Of a stretch of DNA of 32,913 nt, positions 20,005 through 32,913 are shown piece after piece (within the stretch, counting starts at the first letter, position 1; every line of letters starts with the position of its first letter). Below the pieces are notes generated by a model, which was not told the origin of the DNA, ran no database searches, and saw only the letters and a list, made by a program, of their open reading frames with translations. The position numbers and the translations under genes were made by a program. Origin of the DNA: Candidatus Scybalomonas excrementavium. Its GTDB lineage: Bacteria > Bacillota > Clostridia > Lachnospirales > Lachnospiraceae. The stretch spans positions 1-32,913 of the forward strand of contig JADIML010000169.1 of the NCBI GenBank assembly GCA_017694765.1. The letters are read 5' to 3'.

Positions 20005-20066
20005 CAAGCACAGAAATAGACTCTTCTTTCTAATAAGTATCAGTCATTCTGTGCTTGTTCTTTTTT
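20005..20066 (+). terminator. Intrinsic terminator of uxaC
   Basis: CAAGCACAGAA-31 nt-TTCTGTGCTTG (11-bp stem) followed by TTCTTTTTT. Confidence 0.65.
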
Positions 20067-20116
20067 ATGTTATAGGAAATTCATCGGAAAGCGAGTTATC
20101 CTATAACATAAAAAAG
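20060..20116. repeat. 18-bp perfect inverted repeat CTTTTTTATGTTATAGGA / TCCTATAACATAAAAAAG with a 21-nt spacer
   Basis: Arms at 20060-20077 and 20099-20116 are exact reverse complements. No U-tail follows on either strand. Confidence 0.85.
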
Positions 20117-20192
20117 CACTATGTGCGAACGATGCGCAGCTCGCAAAGAAGATAATTTTGCTTCACAAATTGCTCGCGCGCGGCAAAGCGTG

Positions 20193-20319: not shown

Positions 20320-20415
20320 ATCATAATGCGATATTATGGGATCATACGCCCATGGGATCGATAAAGTAGAAACAATGTTAATTTTTTATAAAATATTCAA
20401 GGGGTGAAAACATCA

Positions 20416-23400
20416 ATGGAAAAGAACAGAATACATCCGGTCAAAGCTGGCAAAAGTGTCAGAGTTAGCTATGCAAGACAAAAAGAAATTTTAGAGATGC
20501 CAAACCTGATCGAAGTTCAGAAAAATTCTTATCAGTGGTTCTTAGATGAAGGACTCAAAGAAGTTTTTAATGATATCTCACCTATCACAGATTATAGCGG
20601 ACAGTTAAGTCTTGAATTTGTGGACTTCACATTATGTGAAGATGACGTCAAGTACACAATTGAAGAGTGTAAGGAAAGAGATGCCACTTATGCTGCTCCT
20701 CTGAAAGTAAAGGTAAGACTTTATAACAGAGAAACAGATGAATTTAGTCAGCATGATATCTTTATGGGTGACCTGCCTTTAATGACAAAGACAGGTACAT
20801 TTGTGATCAATGGTGCAGAACGTGTTATCGTTAGCCAGTTAGTTCGTTCACCAGGTATTTATTATGCGATTGGTCATGATAAAATCGGAAAAGAATTATA
20901 TTCAAGTACCGTTATTCCAAACCGTGGTGCATGGTTAGAATATGAAACAGATTCAAACGACGTATTTTATGTTCGTGTTGATAGAACAAGAAAAGTTCCA
21001 ATTACTGTCTTAATCCGTGCTTTAGGAATTGGAACAAATGCAGAAATTAAAGAATTGTTCGGTGAAGAACCAAAGATTTTGGCTAGTTTTGAAAAGGATC
21101 CATCTGATAATTATCAAGATGGTTTATTAGAGTTATACAAAAAAATCCGTCCAGGTGAGCCTTTATCAGTAGATAGTGCAGAAAGCCTGATCAATAGTAT
21201 GTTTTTCGACCCTAGAAGATATGACCTTGCAAAGGTTGGACGTTACAAATTTAATAAAAAATTAGCTCTTAAAAATAGAATTAGTGGACATAAATTAGCA
21301 GAAGATGTTGTAGATATGTCTACAGGAGAAATCATTGCAGAAGCAGGAACTGTTGTAACAAGAGAATTAGCCGATCAGATTCAAAATGCAGCAGTACCAT
21401 TTGTTATGATGGAAGCAGAAGAAAGAGTTGTAAAAGTTCTTTCTAATATGATGGTAGATCTTAGAGCTTATGTGGATGTAGATCCAGAAGAATTTGGTAT
21501 CACAGAAGCTGTGTATTATCCAGTATTAGCTGGAATTTTAGCAGAATATGATGATATGGAAGAGATCAAAGAAGCAATTCGTAAAAATGTGGTAGATTTA
21601 GTACCAAAACACATTACAAAAGAAGATATTTTAGCTTCTATTAACTATAATTTACATTTAGAGTATGGATTTGGAACTTCTGATGATATTGACCACTTAG
21701 GAAATCGTCGTATTCGTGCAGTTGGAGAATTATTACAAAATCAATATCGTATTGGTTTATCAAGATTAGAACGTGTTGTTCGTGAAAGAATGACAACACA
21801 GGATTTAGAAACAGTTTCTCCACAATCTTTAATTAATATTAAACCAGTTACTGCAGCAGTGAAAGAATTCTTTGGAAGCTCTCAGTTATCTCAGTTTATG
21901 GATCAGAACAATCCATTATCAGAGCTTACTCACAAAAGACGTCTTTCTGCATTAGGACCAGGTGGTCTTTCAAGAGATCGTGCAGGTTTCGAAGTTCGTG
22001 ACGTTCACTATACACATTATGGTAGAATGTGTCCAATCGAAACACCGGAAGGTCCAAACATCGGTCTTATTAACTCATTAGCGACTTATGCGAGAATTAA
22101 TCAATATGGATTTATTGAAGCTCCATATTTAGTTCTTGATAAATCCGATCCACAAAATCCAAGAGTTACCGATGAATTTGTATATTTGACAGCAGACGAA
22201 GAAGATAATTATACAGTTGCACAGGCGAATGAACCAATTGATGAAAATGGATATTTCCTTCATGATAACGTATCTGGTCGTTACCGTGAAGAAACATCTC
22301 AGTTCCCAAAAGCTCGTATGGACTTAATGGACGTATCACCTAAGATGGTATTCTCTGTAGCGACATCTATGATTCCTTTCCTTGAAAACGATGATGCGAA
22401 CCGTGCGTTAATGGGATCTAACATGCAGCGTCAGGCAGTACCTCTTCTTAGAACAGAAGCACCTGTTGTAGGAACTGGAATGGAATCAAAAGCTGCGGTT
22501 GACTCAGGAGCTTGTGTTGTTGCAGAACATGATGGTGTTGTAGAAAAAGCGACATCCAAAGAAATCATCGTAAGAAGAGAAGATGGCACAAGAGATGTAT
22601 ATCATACAGTGAAATTTGCAAGAAGCAACCAATCAAACTGTATGAATCAGAGAACAATCGTAAACAAAGGTGACCATGTAAAAGCAGGAGAAGTATTAGC
22701 AGATGGTGCTTCTACAAGCAATGGTGAATTAGCACTTGGTAAAAACCCATTAATCGGATTTATGACTTGGGAAGGTTATAACTACGAGGATGCGGTTCTT
22801 TTAAGTGAACGTTTAGTTCAAGATGATGTCTATACATCCGTTCATATCGAAGAATATGAAGCAGAAGCAAGAGATACAAAACTTGGACAGGAAGAAATTA
22901 CAAGAGATTTAGCAGGTCTTAATGAAGATGTGTTAAAAGATCTTGATGAAAATGGTATTATTCGAATCGGTGCAGAAGTTCGTGCAGGAGATATCTTAGT
23001 TGGTAAAGTAACACCAAAGGGTGAAACAGAATTAACAGCAGAAGAACGTCTTTTAAGAGCAATCTTCGGTGAAAAAGCTCGTGAAGTTAGAGATACTTCT
23101 TTAAGAGTTCCACATGGTTCTTATGGTATCGTATTAGATGCAAAAGTATTCACAAGAGAAAATGGAGATGAGCTTCCACCAGGAGTAAATAAATCTGTAC
23201 GTGTTTATATCGCACAGAAGAGAAAAATCTCTGTTGGTGATAAGATGGCTGGTCGCCATGGTAATAAAGGGGTTATCTCAAGAATTCTTCCAGTGGAAGA
23301 TATGCCATTCCTTCCAAACGGAAGACCGCTTGATATCGTATTAAATCCTCTTGGGGTGCCTTCTCGTATGAATATCGGACAGGTATTAGAAATCCACTTA

Positions 23401-24240
23401 AGTCTTGCATCTAAAGTATTAGGCTTTAATGTATCGACACCAGTCTTTAATGGTGCTGATGAAAATGACATTATGGATACACTTGAGATGGCAAACGATT
23501 ACGCAAACTGGGGATGGCCTGATTTCGAAGAAAAATGGGGTCCAAAAGTAAGCGATGATGTGATGAAATACCTCTATGATAATCGTGCACATCGTGCAGA
23601 ATGGAGAGGTGTTCCATTAAATCGTACAGGTAAAGTTCAGCTCCGTGACGGACGTACAGGAGAAGAATTTGATAGTCCTGTAACAATCGGATTCATGCAC
23701 TACTTAAAACTCCACCACTTAGTAGACGATAAGATCCATGCTCGTTCTACTGGTCCTTACTCCTTGGTAACACAACAGCCACTTGGTGGTAAAGCGCAGT
23801 TTGGTGGACAGCGTTTTGGTGAGATGGAAGTTTGGGCTCTTGAAGCGTATGGTGCATCTTACACATTACAGGAAATCCTTACAGTGAAATCTGATGATGT
23901 TGTTGGTCGTGTTAAGACATATGAAGCCATCATTAAAGGAGAAAATATTCCGGAACCAGGTATTCCAGAATCTTTCAAAGTATTATTAAAAGAATTCCAG
24001 TCACTTGCATTAGATGTACGTGTCTTAAAAGAAGATGCAACAGAAATCGAAATTCAAGAGAGAGTCGATTATGGAAATGAAGATTTAACACCAATGATCG
24101 AAGGGGATTCTAACTTTGGCTTAGAACAAGAAGAATCTTTTGGAGATATGGGATTTAAAGAAGGCTCCTATGAAGATGGGGAAGATCCATTAGATGATTT
24201 TGATGCTGTACCAATAGGAGCAGATGATTCTGATTTCTAA
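20416..24240 (+). CDS. rpoB: DNA-directed RNA polymerase subunit beta
   Basis: Unmistakable: [54 protein letters not shown]. Start placed at ATG 20416 ([10 protein letters not shown]...), 9 nt after AAGGGGTG; the ORF-track start at 20404 is a GTG inside the RBS. Confidence 0.98.
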
Positions 24241-24305: not shown

Positions 24306-24452
24306 CATCATTGTGAAAAAGATAAGCAATAGATGTATTTATAAATTCGTGAAACTTGGCAAAAATTTTGCTATAAAAATAAGAGATTACTCGAGCAAGA
24401 AACACCAATTTTGGTGTGGATATGTTCATTAGCACGGGAAGGAGTAACCAGA

Positions 24453-28061
<3,609 letters not shown>

Positions 28062-28070
28062 TTGCTATAG

Positions 28071-28104
28071 AAAGGGAAGAAACGAAATGGTTTCTTCCCT
28101 TTTT
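28071..28104 (+). terminator. Intrinsic terminator of rpoC
   Basis: AAAGGGAAGAAAC-GAAATG-GTTTCTTCCCTTT followed by a T-run. Confidence 0.9.
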
Positions 28105-28241
28105 ACTTTATAGAAAATTTTTCTTAGTAAGTCACACTTTATTCAGACTCTATAAGATGGGTATGATGATAAAAGTGAATCAAATTAAGGAATATAGCCG
28201 AAATTTACTTTTAAAAAAATGAAAAAATTTACAAAAAAGTA

Positions 28242-28270
28242 TTGACAAAATATGGATATGCGAGTAATAT
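28242..28270 (+). promoter_or_regulatory. SigmaA-type promoter TTGACA-17 nt-TAATAT driving the riboswitch leader
   Basis: Consensus -35, exact 17-nt spacer, and an A-rich upstream tract. Lies about 20 nt before riboswitch unit 1. Confidence 0.7.
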
Positions 28271-28287
28271 ATGTGCATACAATAAAT

Positions 28288-28392
28288 AGTAAAAAGGCAA
28301 AATTACTGAAAAGTAATGACGCAAAGTTAAGTATCTAAGGCAATAAAGCTATGATCGACTGACTGCACTGTTAATTTAACAGTGCTTTTTTT
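28288..28392 (+). promoter_or_regulatory. c-di-GMP-I (GEMM-I)-like riboswitch unit 1: aptamer plus intrinsic terminator
   Basis: AAAAAGGCAAA, then the AUUACU-GAAA-AGUAAU hairpin, then GACGCAAAG, then UCUAAGG...CUAUGA (tetraloop-receptor-like). The terminator is GCACTGTT-AATTT-AACAGTGC plus T7. Confidence 0.8.
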
Positions 28393-28552
28393 ATTTCATA
28401 AAAAGAGTTTGTCCATTCTTTTAGAAGAGAATTGGTTTTCTATGAAAGAAGAAAGCGTGAGAAAATGTAACTCAGAACAATAAAGTATAAAGGATGTAAA
28501 CTTTATGATAAATGAGGTTACGAATTGTTAGGAAAACCAAAGAGATAGAAGA

Positions 28553-28658
28553 AGTAAAAGGGCAAAATTACTGAAAAGTAATGACGCAAAGTTAAGTGTC
28601 TAAGGCAAATAAAGCTATGATTGACTAACTGCACTGTTAATTTAACAGTGCTTTTTTT
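28553..28658 (+). promoter_or_regulatory. c-di-GMP-I (GEMM-I)-like riboswitch unit 2: aptamer plus intrinsic terminator
   Basis: Direct repeat of unit 1, differing by 4 substitutions and a 1-nt indel, with the same conserved strands and an identical terminator. Confidence 0.8.
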
Positions 28659-28681
28659 ATTTCATAGGAAATACCTTGTTA

Positions 28682-28730
28682 CATTGTTAGAAGTAACTGA
28701 AAGTTACGAAGAGTGTACAAGGGACACTTT
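28682..28730 (+). repeat. 49-nt intergenic repeat, copy B (matches 20193-20241 at 42/49 positions)
   Basis: CATTGTTAGAAGTAACTGAAAGTTACGAAGAGTGTACAAGGGACACTTT. Contains the hairpin GTAACT-GAA-AGTTAC. Lies between riboswitch unit 2 and the first ORF. Confidence 0.8.
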
Positions 28731-28764
28731 ATTATGAGCCAAATAAAAGAGAGGGGAGACTTCT

Positions 28765-29139
28765 ATGACAGATAAAGAATTAAAAAAGTTAGGGCGTGTA
28801 GCACTCTTAGAAATGTTAGTTGATATGGGTAAAAGAAATGAAGAGTTAGAACATGAAAATGAAGTATTAAAAAAACTTCAAGAAGAGAAGGAGATTCGAA
28901 TTCAAAATGCAGGTTCTATAGCAAATGCAGCGTTGGAGTTAAATAAAGTATTTGAAAATGCTCAAGCAGCAGCTGATCAATATTTATCAAATATAAAGCA
29001 GTTACAAAAAAAGGAAGAAGAACAAGCAAACACGATATTAGAGGAAGCAAACTTGAAAGCACAATGGATATTAGAACAAGCCAAAAAGGAAGCAGATCAA
29101 ATCCTATCAAATGCGAAATTAAAAGCAGAGGCTACGTAG
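28765..29139 (+). CDS. Small coiled-coil protein of unknown function (124 aa, no signal peptide)
   Basis: GAGGGGAG RBS 7 nt before the ATG. Heptad-like charged sequence (EELEHENEVLKKLQEEKE...EEANLKAQWILEQAKKEADQILSNAKLKAE) with a central AGSIANAALELNKVFENAQAAADQYL segment. I recognise no family. Confidence 0.6.
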   Translation: MTDKELKKLGRVALLEMLVDMGKRNEELEHENEVLKKLQEEKEIRIQNAGSIANAALELNKVFENAQAAADQYLSNIKQLQKKEEEQANTILEEANLKAQWILEQAKKEADQILSNAKLKAEAT

Positions 29140-29231: not shown

Positions 29232-29813
29232 ATGAAAGCAGATACAAAAGAAATTGCAACGGTAGAGCAGCTAGAAAAAGAGCTCAAACGTGTTCGGCAT
29301 ACAAAAGAATATGGAAGAACATTAAGAGGCACAATATACATTTTACTTGTTGTTGCAGCAGTAGCTTTTTTAATTGCTACATTGTTTTTACCAGTTCTTA
29401 GAGTATACGGAACGAGCATGGAACCAACATTAAAGAATAAAGAAATTGTAGTAGCCTTAAAAGGAAGTGAATTCAAACGAGGCGATATCGTAGCTTTTTA
29501 TTACAATAATAAAATTCTCTTAAAACGGGTGATTGGAGTAGCTGGTGACCAAATTGTAATCGAGAAAGATGGAACCGTTTTTGTAAATGGAGAAAAGTTA
29601 GAAGAGCCTTATATTTCAGGAAAAAGTCTTGGTGAATGTGATTTATCATTTCCATATCAAGTTCCTGATAATCGGATCTTTGTTATGGGAGACCATCGAG
29701 ATGTATCCATAGATAGTCGATCCTCAACGATTGGATGTATTGCAGATGAATCCATCGTAGGAAAAGTAGCCATTCGGGTTTGGCCACTGAATGAAATAGG
29801 ACTTATCAATTAG
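29232..29813 (+). CDS. lepB: Signal peptidase I (S26A), catalytic Ser/Lys present
   Basis: N-terminal TM anchor IYILLVVAAVAFLIATLFL, Ser box YGTSMEPTL, Lys box LLKRVIGVAGD, and box E VMGDHRDVSIDSR. Confidence 0.9.
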   Translation: MKADTKEIATVEQLEKELKRVRHTKEYGRTLRGTIYILLVVAAVAFLIATLFLPVLRVYGTSMEPTLKNKEIVVALKGSEFKRGDIVAFYYNNKILLKRVIGVAGDQIVIEKDGTVFVNGEKLEEPYISGKSLGECDLSFPYQVPDNRIFVMGDHRDVSIDSRSSTIGCIADESIVGKVAIRVWPLNEIGLIN

Positions 29814-29832: not shown

Positions 29833-32800
29833 ATGCAAAAAGAACTTCAAACCAAAATAAGTCAATACTTAAAAAATAGTATGAAAATGAGACATCATTA
29901 TCAAATTCTTACGGTTATTGCCATAGCTGTTATATTTCTTGTATATAGTGTTTTAACAAAACCAGCTATTAGTATGGCATACGATAATATTAGCGTAGAA
30001 GCTATGAGGGAAAATACAGCATTTGGACAAGTAGTTCCAGTAAGAATTACAGCACAAGCATTGCAAGGAACAGAACCAACTACGTTCGTTATTTATACAA
30101 AAGGTGTTGGTGGTGGATTATCTTTCGAATATCAATTCAATGAAGAAAATATTTGTGAAGTAATGACAGAAGACGGAACTACAATTCAGTTACATAAAGA
30201 AGAAATACTGGATGAAGAAAACAGGAATGTTATAAAACATAACTATTGGTTTACGTTACAACCAGAAGAAAAGACAGCATTTGTTTTAAATTATACATCG
30301 GATGTAGAGGTTATTACGAATGAAAGTAATGTTAGTACAGGTGGAGGAAGCCAAGTACAACCAGAACAAACATCAGAGAATATAGAAAGTTCAAAAGAGG
30401 ACACAGGAAGTACTGATGTGACAGAAGAAGAAAAGACAGAAGCGACAACAGAAAAAGCAACGGAAGAAGAAGCAGAAGCGACAACAGAAAAAATACCAGA
30501 AGAAGAAAAGGCAGAAGCCACGACAGAAAAAGTACCAGAAGAAGAACAAGTAGAAGCCACAACAGAAAAAATACCAGAAGAAGAACAAGTAGAAGCCACA
30601 ACAGAAAAAGTGCCAGAGGAAGAAAAGACAGAAGTGGCAACAGAAAAAGTAATAGAAGAAGAACAAGTAGAAGACACAACAGATAAGTCAGAAAATGTGA
30701 AGCAAGAAGTCACAGCAGAGAAGAAAGATGTGACAATAGTTGATCCAACGACATTTAATAAAATTGCGATGACCGAAGCAGCATATATCATGGCAGAAAA
30801 TGATATAGAACATACAGAGAGTGAAGTGACAGAACAAGTATCCACAGAAAGTCAAGAAGTAACAACAGAAGAAAACAGTCATACAACACCAGAAGAGATA
30901 CCAAAAGCGGATCAAAATCTTACAGGACCAGAAGTATTACCTGAAGAGACTACAGAGGTAACAGTTCCTATTCACGATGAAGAAGAGATACAACAAGAAA
31001 TGCCAAAAATGGATCAATATTTAGAGATTTATGTGGCAGCATCAGCAGATGGTGGATATGGAGAAATTGCACAGCAATTACAAGGAGAAGTGGAAGGCTG
31101 GAAAGGTAATGTTCCAGTGGAACGCATTGAAAATAAGAAAGTTGCAAATCTTTCTTGGACAGCAGAAGAAAATGTTAGTGACATTATAGTAAAGGCAAGA
31201 ACAAAAGAAGATACACTGGTTACAATATCAGGAAGTAAAAGCAATTTTAATGAAACAGATTTAAAAGATATTCGTATAAAAGCAGAGGAATCTTCTAATA
31301 TGGATATGGAAACTCTAAAATCCATGTTAGAGAGTGACGAGCTTAGTATTTTAGAACAAAAAGGATTCCAAATTGTATTTCTAACGAATGGGCAAGAAGT
31401 ACAACCAACAGGAGACTTTAATATTACCTTTGAAGAATTCGAGTATGATAAAGATACAAAAACAGTAGAAGTATATCAGACGAATGAAGAAGGTGCATGG
31501 AAAAAAATAGATTCTAACTTTAGTGAGGATGGCAGTTTACGAATTTTAGTAAATGGTACTTCTTATAAGCAAAATGAAATTGTATTTTTAGGAAATAAAA
31601 CGCCTACTAAAATAAGTAAAAATGGATTAACTGCAATTCATATTACAAAAGAATGGAAAGATGAAAAAGAGCCAGAAGATATCACAGAAATTGGAATTCA
31701 CATTTACAATGATGAAGGAAAAGAAGTTGCAACGACAACATTGACGAAACAAGCTAGTTGGAAAGCAACAGTAAAAGATCTTCCTTTATATAATGCAAAT
31801 GGAGAACGGATTCAATATTCTGTTGTAGAAGATGAAATTCAAGGATATCCATCTGGAATGGCACAATATAGTGGACAAGAAAAAGTATGGGTTCCAGTAA
31901 AAGAAGAGGAAATTACAGAGGATTCCGAATACTTAACAATTATCAAAGAAAATGATAAACAATATGTTTATAGTAGCAAAGATCCTTCTAATAAAGTGGA
32001 AGTAACAAAAGAACAGCTTGGAGAACAAGTTGTAAAAGATATTAATGGCATAGAAACAAGTTGTTTTATTATTCAAGAAGAAGAAATTGCAAAACGGCTT
32101 GGAATAGAAACAGGAATAGAAGAAGATCTGGAAGTTACTATTGAAGATGTAGATGAAATAGAGGCAGCTATTAAGGAGGAAGAAGAATTAACAATTTCTA
32201 CATATAAGCCACTTTCTTTAAAAACTTCCATAGAAGAAGAGGAAACAAATATAAACACTTATGTAGGAAGTTATAAAGAAGAGTATACAGATTCTGTTGT
32301 AGTGCTTACGAGTGGAAATAGTGATAATGGTAGTACAACGGTTACAGTAACAAAAGAATGGCTTGATGGAGAAGAACATCCAGATTCTGTAACGGTACAG
32401 TTATATAGAAGATACAAAGGAGAAAATAGCTGGAAAGAAGAACATAAAGTATCTGGTTACACTTTAGTCTTGAGTGAGGCCAATCATTGGACTAGTCAAT
32501 GGGATAACCTTCCAAGTCGAGATAGAACAAAACAATATGAATATACAGCACGTGAAGTAGAAATTCCAGATGGATATGAGGCAATTACAGCAACGAACCA
32601 AGAATATAATTGGGAGGCTGTTACTACATTAGAAAATAATCAGACATATTTGATTTTATCTAGTAACGGATATACGTTTAATAGTAGCTTAGATGTAGTT
32701 AATATCAATTCTACAGGTAGTGAGAAAGCCAATAATATCCAAAATCAGTGGATAGTAGAAACAAGTAATGATGGTATATATTTAAAGAATGTATATAATG

Positions 32801-32913
32801 ACAAATATATAGCCTGGACAAGCAATGATAATGATAGTTGGAAATTAGTAGAAAACAGATCGAATGCAGAAAAATTTCAATATTATAATAATAAATTATA
32901 TATAAAAGGATAT
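29833..32913 (+). CDS. Large secreted surface protein/adhesin with acidic tandem repeats and at least two Cna-B-type domains (3' end outside the window)
   Basis: Not in the supplied ORF track because it has no stop: 1027 in-frame codons from ATG 29833 (after AGGAGGG) to the window end, by my own translation. Signal/anchor HHYQILTVIAIAVIFLVYSVLTKPAISMA. Cna-B-like segments are AIHITKEWKDEKEPEDITEIGIHIY...RIQYSVVEDEIQGY and VTVTKEWLDGEEHPDSVTVQLYR...YEYTAREVEIPDGYEA. Several listed minus-strand ORFs between 30291 and 32258 are its antisense shadows. Confidence 0.8.
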   Translation, partial: MQKELQTKISQYLKNSMKMRHHYQILTVIAIAVIFLVYSVLTKPAISMAYDNISVEAMRENTAFGQVVPVRITAQALQGTEPTTFVIYTKGVGGGLSFEYQFNEENICEVMTEDGTTIQLHKEEILDEENRNVIKHNYWFTLQPEEKTAFVLNYTSDVEVITNESNVSTGGGSQVQPEQTSENIESSKEDTGSTDVTEEEKTEATTEKATEEEAEATTEKIPEEEKAEATTEKVPEEEQVEATTEKIPEEEQVEATTEKVPEEEKTEVATEKVIEEEQVEDTTDKSENVKQEVTAEKKDVTIVDPTTFNKIAMTEAAYIMAENDIEHTESEVTEQVSTESQEVTTEENSHTTPEEIPKADQNLTGPEVLPEETTEVTVPIHDEEEIQQEMPKMDQYLEIYVAASADGGYGEIAQQLQGEVEGWKGNVPVERIENKKVANLSWTAEENVSDIIVKARTKEDTLVTISGSKSNFNETDLKDIRIKAEESSNMDMETLKSMLESDELSILEQKGFQIVFLTNGQEVQPTGDFNITFEEFEYDKDTKTVEVYQTNEEGAWKKIDSNFSEDGSLRILVNGTSYKQNEIVFLGNKTPTKISKNGLTAIHITKEWKDEKEPEDITEIGIHIYNDEGKEVATTTLTKQASWKATVKDLPLYNANGERIQYSVVEDEIQGYPSGMAQYSGQEKVWVPVKEEEITEDSEYLTIIKENDKQYVYSSKDPSNKVEVTKEQLGEQVVKDINGIETSCFIIQEEEIAKRLGIETGIEEDLEVTIEDVDEIEAAIKEEEELTISTYKPLSLKTSIEEEETNINTYVGSYKEEYTDSVVVLTSGNSDNGSTTVTVTKEWLDGEEHPDSVTVQLYRRYKGENSWKEEHKVSGYTLVLSEANHWTSQWDNLPSRDRTKQYEYTAREVEIPDGYEAITATNQEYNWEAVTTLENNQTYLILSSNGYTFNSSLDVVNINSTGSEKANNIQNQWIVETSNDGIYLKNVYNDKYIAWTSNDNDSWKLVENRSNAEKFQYYNNKLYIKGY
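30424..30693 (+). repeat. Seven in-frame tandem repeats of 39 nt (one of 36 nt) encoding EEE(K/Q)xEATTEKxP
   Basis: Unit boundaries at 30424, 30463, 30499, 30538, 30577, 30616 and 30655. Units at 30538 and 30577 differ at only 3 nt. Confidence 0.9.

Follow-up and report, generated by a model that had tools for sequence, protein, structure and literature searches.

The subject of this work is a 32,913-nt stretch of DNA, the forward strand of contig JADIML010000169.1 (assembly GCA_017694765.1) from Candidatus Scybalomonas excrementavium, a member of the Lachnospiraceae; the whole stretch is called the window below. Downstream of rpoC it carries two near-identical riboswitches of the class that responds to cyclic di-GMP (c-di-GMP), known as GEMM-I or c-di-GMP-I. 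We consider it likely that two independent and complete c-di-GMP-I ON units, lying in one 5' untranslated region (UTR), jointly gate a sortase-dependent pilus operon. On each point checked, the predicted features of the pair are those of the family RF01051 and of complete riboswitches set in tandem, with multiple expression platforms.

A repeat search recovers two direct copies at 28288-28400 and 28553-28666, with 96-97% identity and a spacing of 265/266 nt, as described in a first-pass annotation of this DNA. Pairwise alignment reproduces exactly the four substitutions and one indel counted there: 28295 A/G, 28333 A/G, 28356 C/T and 28361 G/A, plus a single nucleotide after 28341. The proposed GEMM-I identity, for which the RF01051 covariance model had been suggested as a check, is borne out by Rfam cmscan of the whole 32.9-kb window, where both units match far above the RF01051 gathering score of 35. 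The aptamer of unit 1 lies at 28286-28370 (+ strand; 69.5 bits, E 7.7e-12) and that of unit 2 at 28551-28636 (+ strand; 68.9 bits, E 1.1e-11), and both alignments span model positions 1-87 of 87. Beyond these two matches the scan of the window gives none at gathering threshold, and the c-di-GMP-II model (RF01786), included as a control, has no match in the window at gathering threshold or at E<=10. When the Rfam scan is made permissive (E<=10), every variant model of the clan scores below RF01051. At the same cutoff no third or degenerate unit is found in the window or in single-copy relatives. Megablast of the riboswitch region against plasmids gives no match, and a scan of JGI metagenomes with a 24-nt pattern of the unit core yields just two loci, each single-copy. 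Each unit, including its terminator, is 113 nt long and AU-rich; the G+C content of the DNA is 34.8%. A tandem of the glycine type, with a platform shared by both aptamers, was also considered and is ruled out: the aptamers lie 265 nt apart, with a terminator after each.

The anatomy of the aptamers is that of the family. In the cmscan alignment the invariant strands GGCAAA and GACGCAAAG border a 6-bp P2 helix in both copies, capped by a GAAA loop of the GNRA type (28308-28311 in unit 1, 28573-28576 in unit 2). In unit 1, on the + strand, P1 joins 28285-28290 (AAUAGU) to 28367-28372 (ACUGUU) over 6 bp, the P2 hairpin occupies 28302-28317, and P3 extends over 28325-28364 with the receptor strands CUAAGG (28335-28340) and UAUGAU (28350-28355). 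The same two strands occur in P3 of both copies. They had initially been read, as UCUAAG/UAUGA, as an altered form of the tetraloop receptor; this is not so, as they equal the Rfam consensus (uCUAAg...uAuGa). The earlier observation that two of the substitutions keep P3 pairs does hold, with A-U becoming G.U at 28333 and U.G becoming U-A at 28361. Unit 2 has a weaker P1, reduced to a 3-bp AGU/ACU core against 6 bp in unit 1. Over 10 distinct units the named P1/P2/P3 structure leaves 96.5% of cells paired, compared to 12-50% when the partners are slid, and compensatory changes are seen in two P2 pairs. Separately, an imperfect inverted repeat covers 28615-28667 (and 28349-28400), in which the receptor strand CUAUGA can pair with UCAUAG just after the U-tract, with the terminator enclosed. 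This CUAUGA/UCAUAG extension is kept only in the window species and in the sister locus L091 (loci are given by such labels below), and may be a mere mark of the duplication boundary.

The ligand of this class is contacted by G20, A47 and C92 together with an interhelical C-G pair (PMC4744006, PMC5888326). In unit 1 the key residues are G20 at 28296, C44 at 28320, A47 at 28323, G83 at 28357 and C92 at 28366; in unit 2 they are found at 28561, 28585, 28588, 28623 and 28632, respectively. The distances from G20 to C44 (24) and from G20 to A47 (27) agree with the Vc1/Vc2 numbering in PMC4744006. Because both copies keep G20, the C44-G83 pair, A47 and C92, the predicted ligand of both units is c-di-GMP and not 3'3'-cyclic GMP-AMP (cGAMP), and from these residues we infer that the units actually bind c-di-GMP. 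G versus A at the contact position distinguishes c-di-GMP binders from c-AMP-GMP binders (PMC9481103). The two copies differ just 5' of GGCAAA, with A or G at 28295, and this site was initially suspected to be the specificity position, a G20/A20 switch; one or both aptamers would then sense 3'3'-cGAMP as in the GEMM-Ib type, and the pair would form a two-input logic gate. However, the differing site is position 19 and was rejected as a switch. The A at position 20 that marks GEMM-Ib is absent, with G at both 28296 and 28561, C92 is likewise present in both copies, and the higher score of RF01051 over every variant model in the clan points the same way. A cGAMP-sensing unit is therefore extremely unlikely.

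Each unit has its own terminator, as the first-pass annotation had claimed: two identical 9-bp hairpins are found, with U7 after each. On the + strand the hairpin of unit 1 lies at 28365-28385 and its U7 at 28386-28392, and the same hairpin in unit 2 lies at 28631-28651 with U7 at 28652-28658. In the DNA the terminator reads GCACTGTTAATTTAACAGTGC followed by T7, identical in both units; in the RNA the arms and loop are GCACUGUUA-AUU-UAACAGUGC, followed by U7. Folded by itself the hairpin has a free energy of -10.4 kcal/mol (z = -4.8). Its 5' arm starts at G91/C92, and thus uses the ligand-contacting C92 as well as the 3' strand of P1. When unit 1 RNA is folded up to a point before the 3' arm of the terminator, the minimum free energy (MFE) structure is the three-way junction with P1, P2 and P3; when the 3' arm is included, P2 and P3 stay and the terminator replaces only P1. 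For the full unit 1 the terminator state reaches -24.2 kcal/mol against -14.4 kcal/mol for the state with aptamer and P1. Since P1 and the terminator are mutually exclusive in these models, both units are most likely transcriptional ON switches, and since the terminator is the MFE default, termination is expected without ligand.

The opposite polarity would have c-di-GMP promote termination, such that a high level of the messenger turns the pilus operon off. Some organisms do have c-di-GMP-I OFF switches, and sequence alone proves neither ON nor OFF. Nonetheless, the terminator starts within the aptamer and takes the 3' strand of P1, so it excludes the ligand-bound fold. Furthermore, no antiterminator is predicted to compete in the ligand-free RNA, for which the terminator is the default. 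Repression of an adhesin at high c-di-GMP would also be contrary to the usual biology (PMC6366702, PMC7423583). Taken together we regard OFF switching as very unlikely.

For the preferred reading, with two ON switches, the course of events would be the following. Transcription would begin from the promoter at 28242-28270, and the P2 and P3 hairpins of each unit would fold with or without ligand. c-di-GMP bound at the three-helix junction (G20, A47, C92) would hold C92 and the P1 3' strand (ACUGUU); with these held, the 5' arm of the terminator would be occupied, no terminator would form and transcription would read through. Without ligand, the 9-bp hairpin and U7 would stop transcription at ~28392 (unit 1) or ~28658 (unit 2). 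Both checkpoints would have to be cleared, and read-through would be the product of two occupancy curves. As c-di-GMP rises, this would give a low leak and a steeper, switch-like induction of the pilus and adhesin genes.

A number of points weigh against this reading. Apart from its AGU/ACU core, P1 of unit 2 is mismatched, and when the unit is folded without constraints the MFE structure favours an alternative GACGC/GUGUC hairpin; the unit as modelled may switch less cleanly or with other kinetics. No GGDEF or EAL gene lies within the window. The units are too alike for strong covariation, with double changes in 2 pairs only. Finally, the Vc2 numbering of the key residues is in part tentative.

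The genetic context fits a single leader transcript. The rpoC gene is followed by an intrinsic terminator at 28068-28105 (+ strand; 16-nt arms and a T run; inverted repeat I1/I3, 94% complementary), so that the riboswitches and the pilus genes form a separate transcription unit. A consensus scan finds the promoter which had been noted ahead of the pair, TTGACA-17-TAATAT of the sigma-70 type, at 28242-28270 (+ strand); with 10/12 positions it is the best promoter match of the region, and would place the transcription start near 28277. The inter-unit spacer of 152 nt (28401-28552, + strand) is unconserved in sister taxa and has no blastn similarity to L091, L095, L097, L101 or L011. It contains no promoter match on the + strand, and its only open reading frames (ORFs) are spurious ones lacking a ribosome-binding site. 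As the spacer offers neither a promoter nor a credible ORF, the two units would act in series on one transcript. The 3' leader (28659-28764, + strand) ends with the ribosome-binding site AGAGGGGAGA at 28750-28759, 5 nt before the ATG. This leader also holds a 34-nt element, AAGTTACGAAGAGTGTACAAGGGACACTTTATT (28701-28734), which matches L091:7354-7388 with a score that 0/1000 shuffles attain, and of which a partial copy occurs at window 28129-28143. The L091 copy lies upstream of the promoter and not downstream of the riboswitches, a displacement which indicates that the intergenic region has been rearranged.

Sister taxa keep the order of rpoBC, intergenic region, small protein, signal peptidase and pilins, and a promoter of the form TTGAC(A/T/C)-17-TA..AT is found at the equivalent position in L091, L094/L095, L097 and L011. 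Two units at a distance of 203 nt are found in the species encoding P0003 (L091/L093). In the species encoding P0005 there are two units 180 nt apart in L095 and a single unit in L094, and the lineage of L097-L101/L011 has one. Copy number is thus 1 or 2, and varies even within one species. Identity to the window amounts to 91-96% for rpoC, 83-95% for the units, 75-79% for the small-protein gene and 82-87% for the signal peptidase gene, while the inter-unit spacer and the 3' leader give no detectable similarity to sister taxa. The conservation of the units within otherwise unalignable intergenic DNA argues that both are under purifying selection. A separate observation concerns the edge of this region: compared to L091, L095 and L097, identity falls sharply at the 3' end of rpoC (28061/28765 boundary). 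The genes of the pilus operon are 75-87% identical to those of sister taxa, and the pilus locus forms a rapidly evolving island that adjoins a core gene.

It might be argued that faulty assembly created the repeat, or that it is a recent duplication without function. Short-read contigs often break at the repeat; those of L108-L110 and L117-L120 start at the repeated unit or right behind it, within ~20-110 nt of the first gene on its upstream side. Yet more than 12 independent metagenome assemblies, produced by different assemblers, show this two-unit structure, the copies can be told apart at 5 sites, and the spacers of two-unit species differ in length (~66, 90 and 152 nt). This makes the argument scarcely credible. 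The breaks do suggest that tandem riboswitches disrupt assemblies, and are probably undercounted in surveys based on metagenome-assembled genomes.

Differences between strains are confined to one of the two units. Among ~13 strains of the window species every single-nucleotide polymorphism within the units falls in unit 1, and unit 2 is invariant. The variants are G21A at 28297 (L007, L010; 62.5 bits), C44U at 28320 (L106, L107; 65.7 bits) and C>T at 28359 (L004). G21A breaks the G21-C46 pair and C44U changes the conserved interhelical C44-G83 pair; if the units are ON switches, either allele could shut off the pilus or shift its threshold upwards. Within the species encoding P0005, L094:7580-8000 and L095:7401-8000 share the same 131-aa first gene, with one and two units, respectively. 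In L094 the 5' part of L095 unit 1 is fused with the sequence flanking unit 2 on its 3' side, which looks like the outcome of a recombinational deletion inside a 48-nt stretch common to the copies. Both loci were assembled with k=141, which exceeds the identical stretch, so an assembly collapse is unlikely to lie behind the one-unit allele. In the single-unit lineage the sequence AAATTACGAAAGATAATGTACGCA, between promoter and riboswitch (L101:2640-2680; also L097, L011 and L112), is reminiscent of an upstream unit's P2 hairpin. Its local-alignment score is reached by 1/1000 shuffles, and it has no covariance-model match at E<=10.

These observations, though small in number, suggest that, of the two units, the upstream one can more readily be dispensed with. 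Taken further, they could mean that only the downstream unit senses; the upstream one would be a duplicate in decay or an attenuator that is constitutive and leaky, and the tandem would be a passing stage of evolution rather than a two-step gate by design. The strain variants, two of which hit core positions of unit 1, the coexistence of 2-unit and 1-unit alleles in one sister species (L095, L094) and the possible relic of the upstream P2 hairpin in L097, L101 and L011 would all fit. On the other hand, unit 1 of the window is intact, with the top score (69.5 bits) and the best P1 (6 bp), and in three sister taxa the upstream units are as well conserved as rpoC, next to a spacer that is randomised. 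Moreover, a count of 3 variable sites versus 0 is statistically non-significant, and the relic is not recognised by the covariance model. We therefore judge it unlikely that unit 2 is the sole sensor, and retain the reading in which both units gate the operon.

Within that reading, a more speculative extension is that the units are non-redundant, and that their number and integrity serve as a fast-evolving rheostat of pilus expression in a gut commensal. We offer this tentatively, and find it doubtful rather than probable. If it were true, unit 1 (A19, 6-bp P1) and unit 2 (G19, 3-bp P1 and the GACGC/GUGUC hairpin) would differ in threshold or kinetics, and adhesion could be tuned or silenced along three routes. 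A unit could be lost by recombination, as between L095 and L094; unit 1 could be crippled by G21A or C44U, which would fix the first terminator in its closed state if the units are ON switches; or unit 1 could decay fully, leaving the relic of the L097/L101 lineage.

The genes placed under this control follow directly downstream of rpoBC (rpoB 20404-24240, rpoC 24411-28061). The first, at 28765-29139 (+ strand), encodes a 124-aa coiled-coil protein of a conserved uncharacterised family with the motif NAGSIAxAALELNxVFExAQAAADQY. It is followed by a signal peptidase I of the S26 type (29232-29813, + strand; PF10502 1.8e-35, TIGR02227 3.5e-38), in which the serine motif SMEPT and the lysine motif KRVIG are both kept and which, by these motifs, is catalytically intact. 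The 5' part of a pilus tip adhesin gene, encoding a large Cna_B protein, then runs from 29833 to 32913 (+ strand) and past the end of the window. The remainder can be read from ten longer contigs of the same species (L001-L010), all of them metagenome assemblies; a gut label is attached to the sister locus L098 only. On these contigs the full-length tip adhesin measures ~1700 aa with Cna_B, VWA, SpaA and DUF7604 domains, and is followed by a 586-aa backbone pilin (GramPos_pilinBB, SpaA, LPXTG anchor), a sortase, a minor pilin and a second sortase. Judged by its gene content, the downstream operon is a pilus cluster of the classical sortase-dependent kind. That high c-di-GMP should induce an adhesive pilus would suit the general role of the messenger and the known riboswitch-controlled adhesins (PMC7423583, PMC6200980).

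The adhesin gene shows some variation of its own. At 30291-30845 (+ strand) it encodes acidic tandem repeats with TEKxPEEEx motifs, and protein length ranges over 1684-1733 aa among strains. In 2 of the 10 strains (L004 and L006; 11069-11399) gene calling splits it into a 74-aa fragment and a 1623-aa ORF; a frameshift, phase variation or an assembly error could account for this.

The family of the 124-aa protein is widespread: a GTDB scan gives 301 loci confirmed by tblastn in Clostridia and Coriobacteriia, the best matches being 57-58% identical (uncultured Clostridiales UMGS680, ERR1430482-bin.12). In the loci inspected the homologues are followed by genes for a signal peptidase and for pilins or adhesins; L113, which has no riboswitch, is one example. 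By this context the protein may be an uncharacterised component of pilus operons. In a regex screen of 80 homologous loci, GEMM-I was found upstream of the gene only in this genus-level clade and in Blautia, so the riboswitch is no general trait of the gene family. A borderline c-di-GMP-I match at L048:5772-5855 (Blautia difficilis; 35.6 bits against the gathering score of 35), upstream of a 124-aa homologue, hints that the association of riboswitch and gene recurs outside the clade of the window.

One further element was noted at a distance from the pair. In the gap between uxaC and rpoB, at 20058-20118, a microRNA model scores ~29 bits on both strands alike, far below its gathering score. 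The site is probably a near-perfect palindrome unrelated to microRNAs, and possibly a bidirectional terminator.

Concerning its significance, the pair is a new and clean example of a well-known and fairly common arrangement rather than a rarity. It leaves the present understanding of riboswitch mechanisms unchanged and would not surprise a riboswitch specialist. Its value lies in adding a well-resolved natural two-step c-di-GMP gate to the known examples, and in connecting a classical operon for a sortase-assembled pilus, in an uncultured Clostridia lineage probably of the human gut, with control by c-di-GMP riboswitches. The one- and two-unit alleles, together with the core mutations of unit 1, provide a natural allelic series in which tandem number could be related to threshold and leak. 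In addition, the compact AU-rich units of 113 nt are possible parts for c-di-GMP biosensors, as Bc3-5 (discussed below) already is.

The first-pass annotation had called natural tandem c-di-GMP riboswitches rare. This is wrong: 347 c-di-GMP-I doublets and 12 triplets have been counted, more than any other class of riboswitch shows (Sherlock et al. 2022, PMC9481103), and in a 2025 survey, significant enrichment in contiguous (tandem) arrangements is seen for only three riboswitch families, of which c-di-GMP is one (PMC12452182). The pair described here belongs with these doublets and triplets, being of the same class and corresponding to the type termed 'pseudo-cooperative, multiple expression platforms', with independent units for the same ligand. 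A full-text literature search found no paper that explicitly joins c-di-GMP riboswitches to sortase-dependent pili; its one match, a review on type IV pili of archaea, is unrelated.

Related control of surface proteins is known from other systems with either aptamer class. In Clostridioides difficile, c-di-GMP-II riboswitches lie upstream of the sortase substrate CD2831 and of the type IV pilin gene pilA1, and in Paraclostridium a tandem of c-di-GMP-II precedes COG4932 surface-anchor genes (PMC6200980, PMC9481103). The likeness consists in positive riboswitch-based c-di-GMP control of adhesins or pili in Clostridia, sometimes in tandem; the aptamer class (RF01786), however, is non-homologous and unmatched in the window. 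Closer in class is Bc2, the c-di-GMP-I riboswitch upstream of cap/cbpA, which encodes a collagen-binding LPXTG adhesin in the Bacillus cereus group (PMC4933901, PMC7423583). It too is an ON switch over a sortase-anchored adhesin with Cna_B repeats, but a single riboswitch before a single adhesin gene, where the window has a pair before a pilus operon. The tandem precedent named in the annotation, upstream of a collagen-adhesion gene of the B. cereus group, merges two elements: the collagen-adhesin gene has the single Bc2, and the tandem is Bc3-5, upstream of cspABCDE.

Bc3-5, a triple tandem of c-di-GMP-I in Bacillus thuringiensis CT-43 (Zhou et al. 2016, PMC4759541), is also close to the pair in design. 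There, measurements on the tandem units gave more stringent and more digital control, and the terminator of Bc4, one unit of Bc3-5 (ON by experiment), takes in the binding-site C, P1 and some of P3 (PMC4759541). By analogy, and as the first-pass annotation had proposed, the pair in the window should likewise give a sharper dose-response. Both systems place near-identical complete c-di-GMP-I units in series, each with an intrinsic terminator; in both, the terminator overlaps the C92 equivalent and the P1 3' strand, which implies ON logic; and in both an operon of cell-wall-anchored surface proteins lies downstream. The differences are that Bc3-5 has three units and belongs to the B. cereus group, whereas here two units occur in low-GC gut Clostridia, and that Bc3-5 precedes cspABCDE, whereas the present pair precedes a canonical sortase-pilus cluster next to rpoBC.

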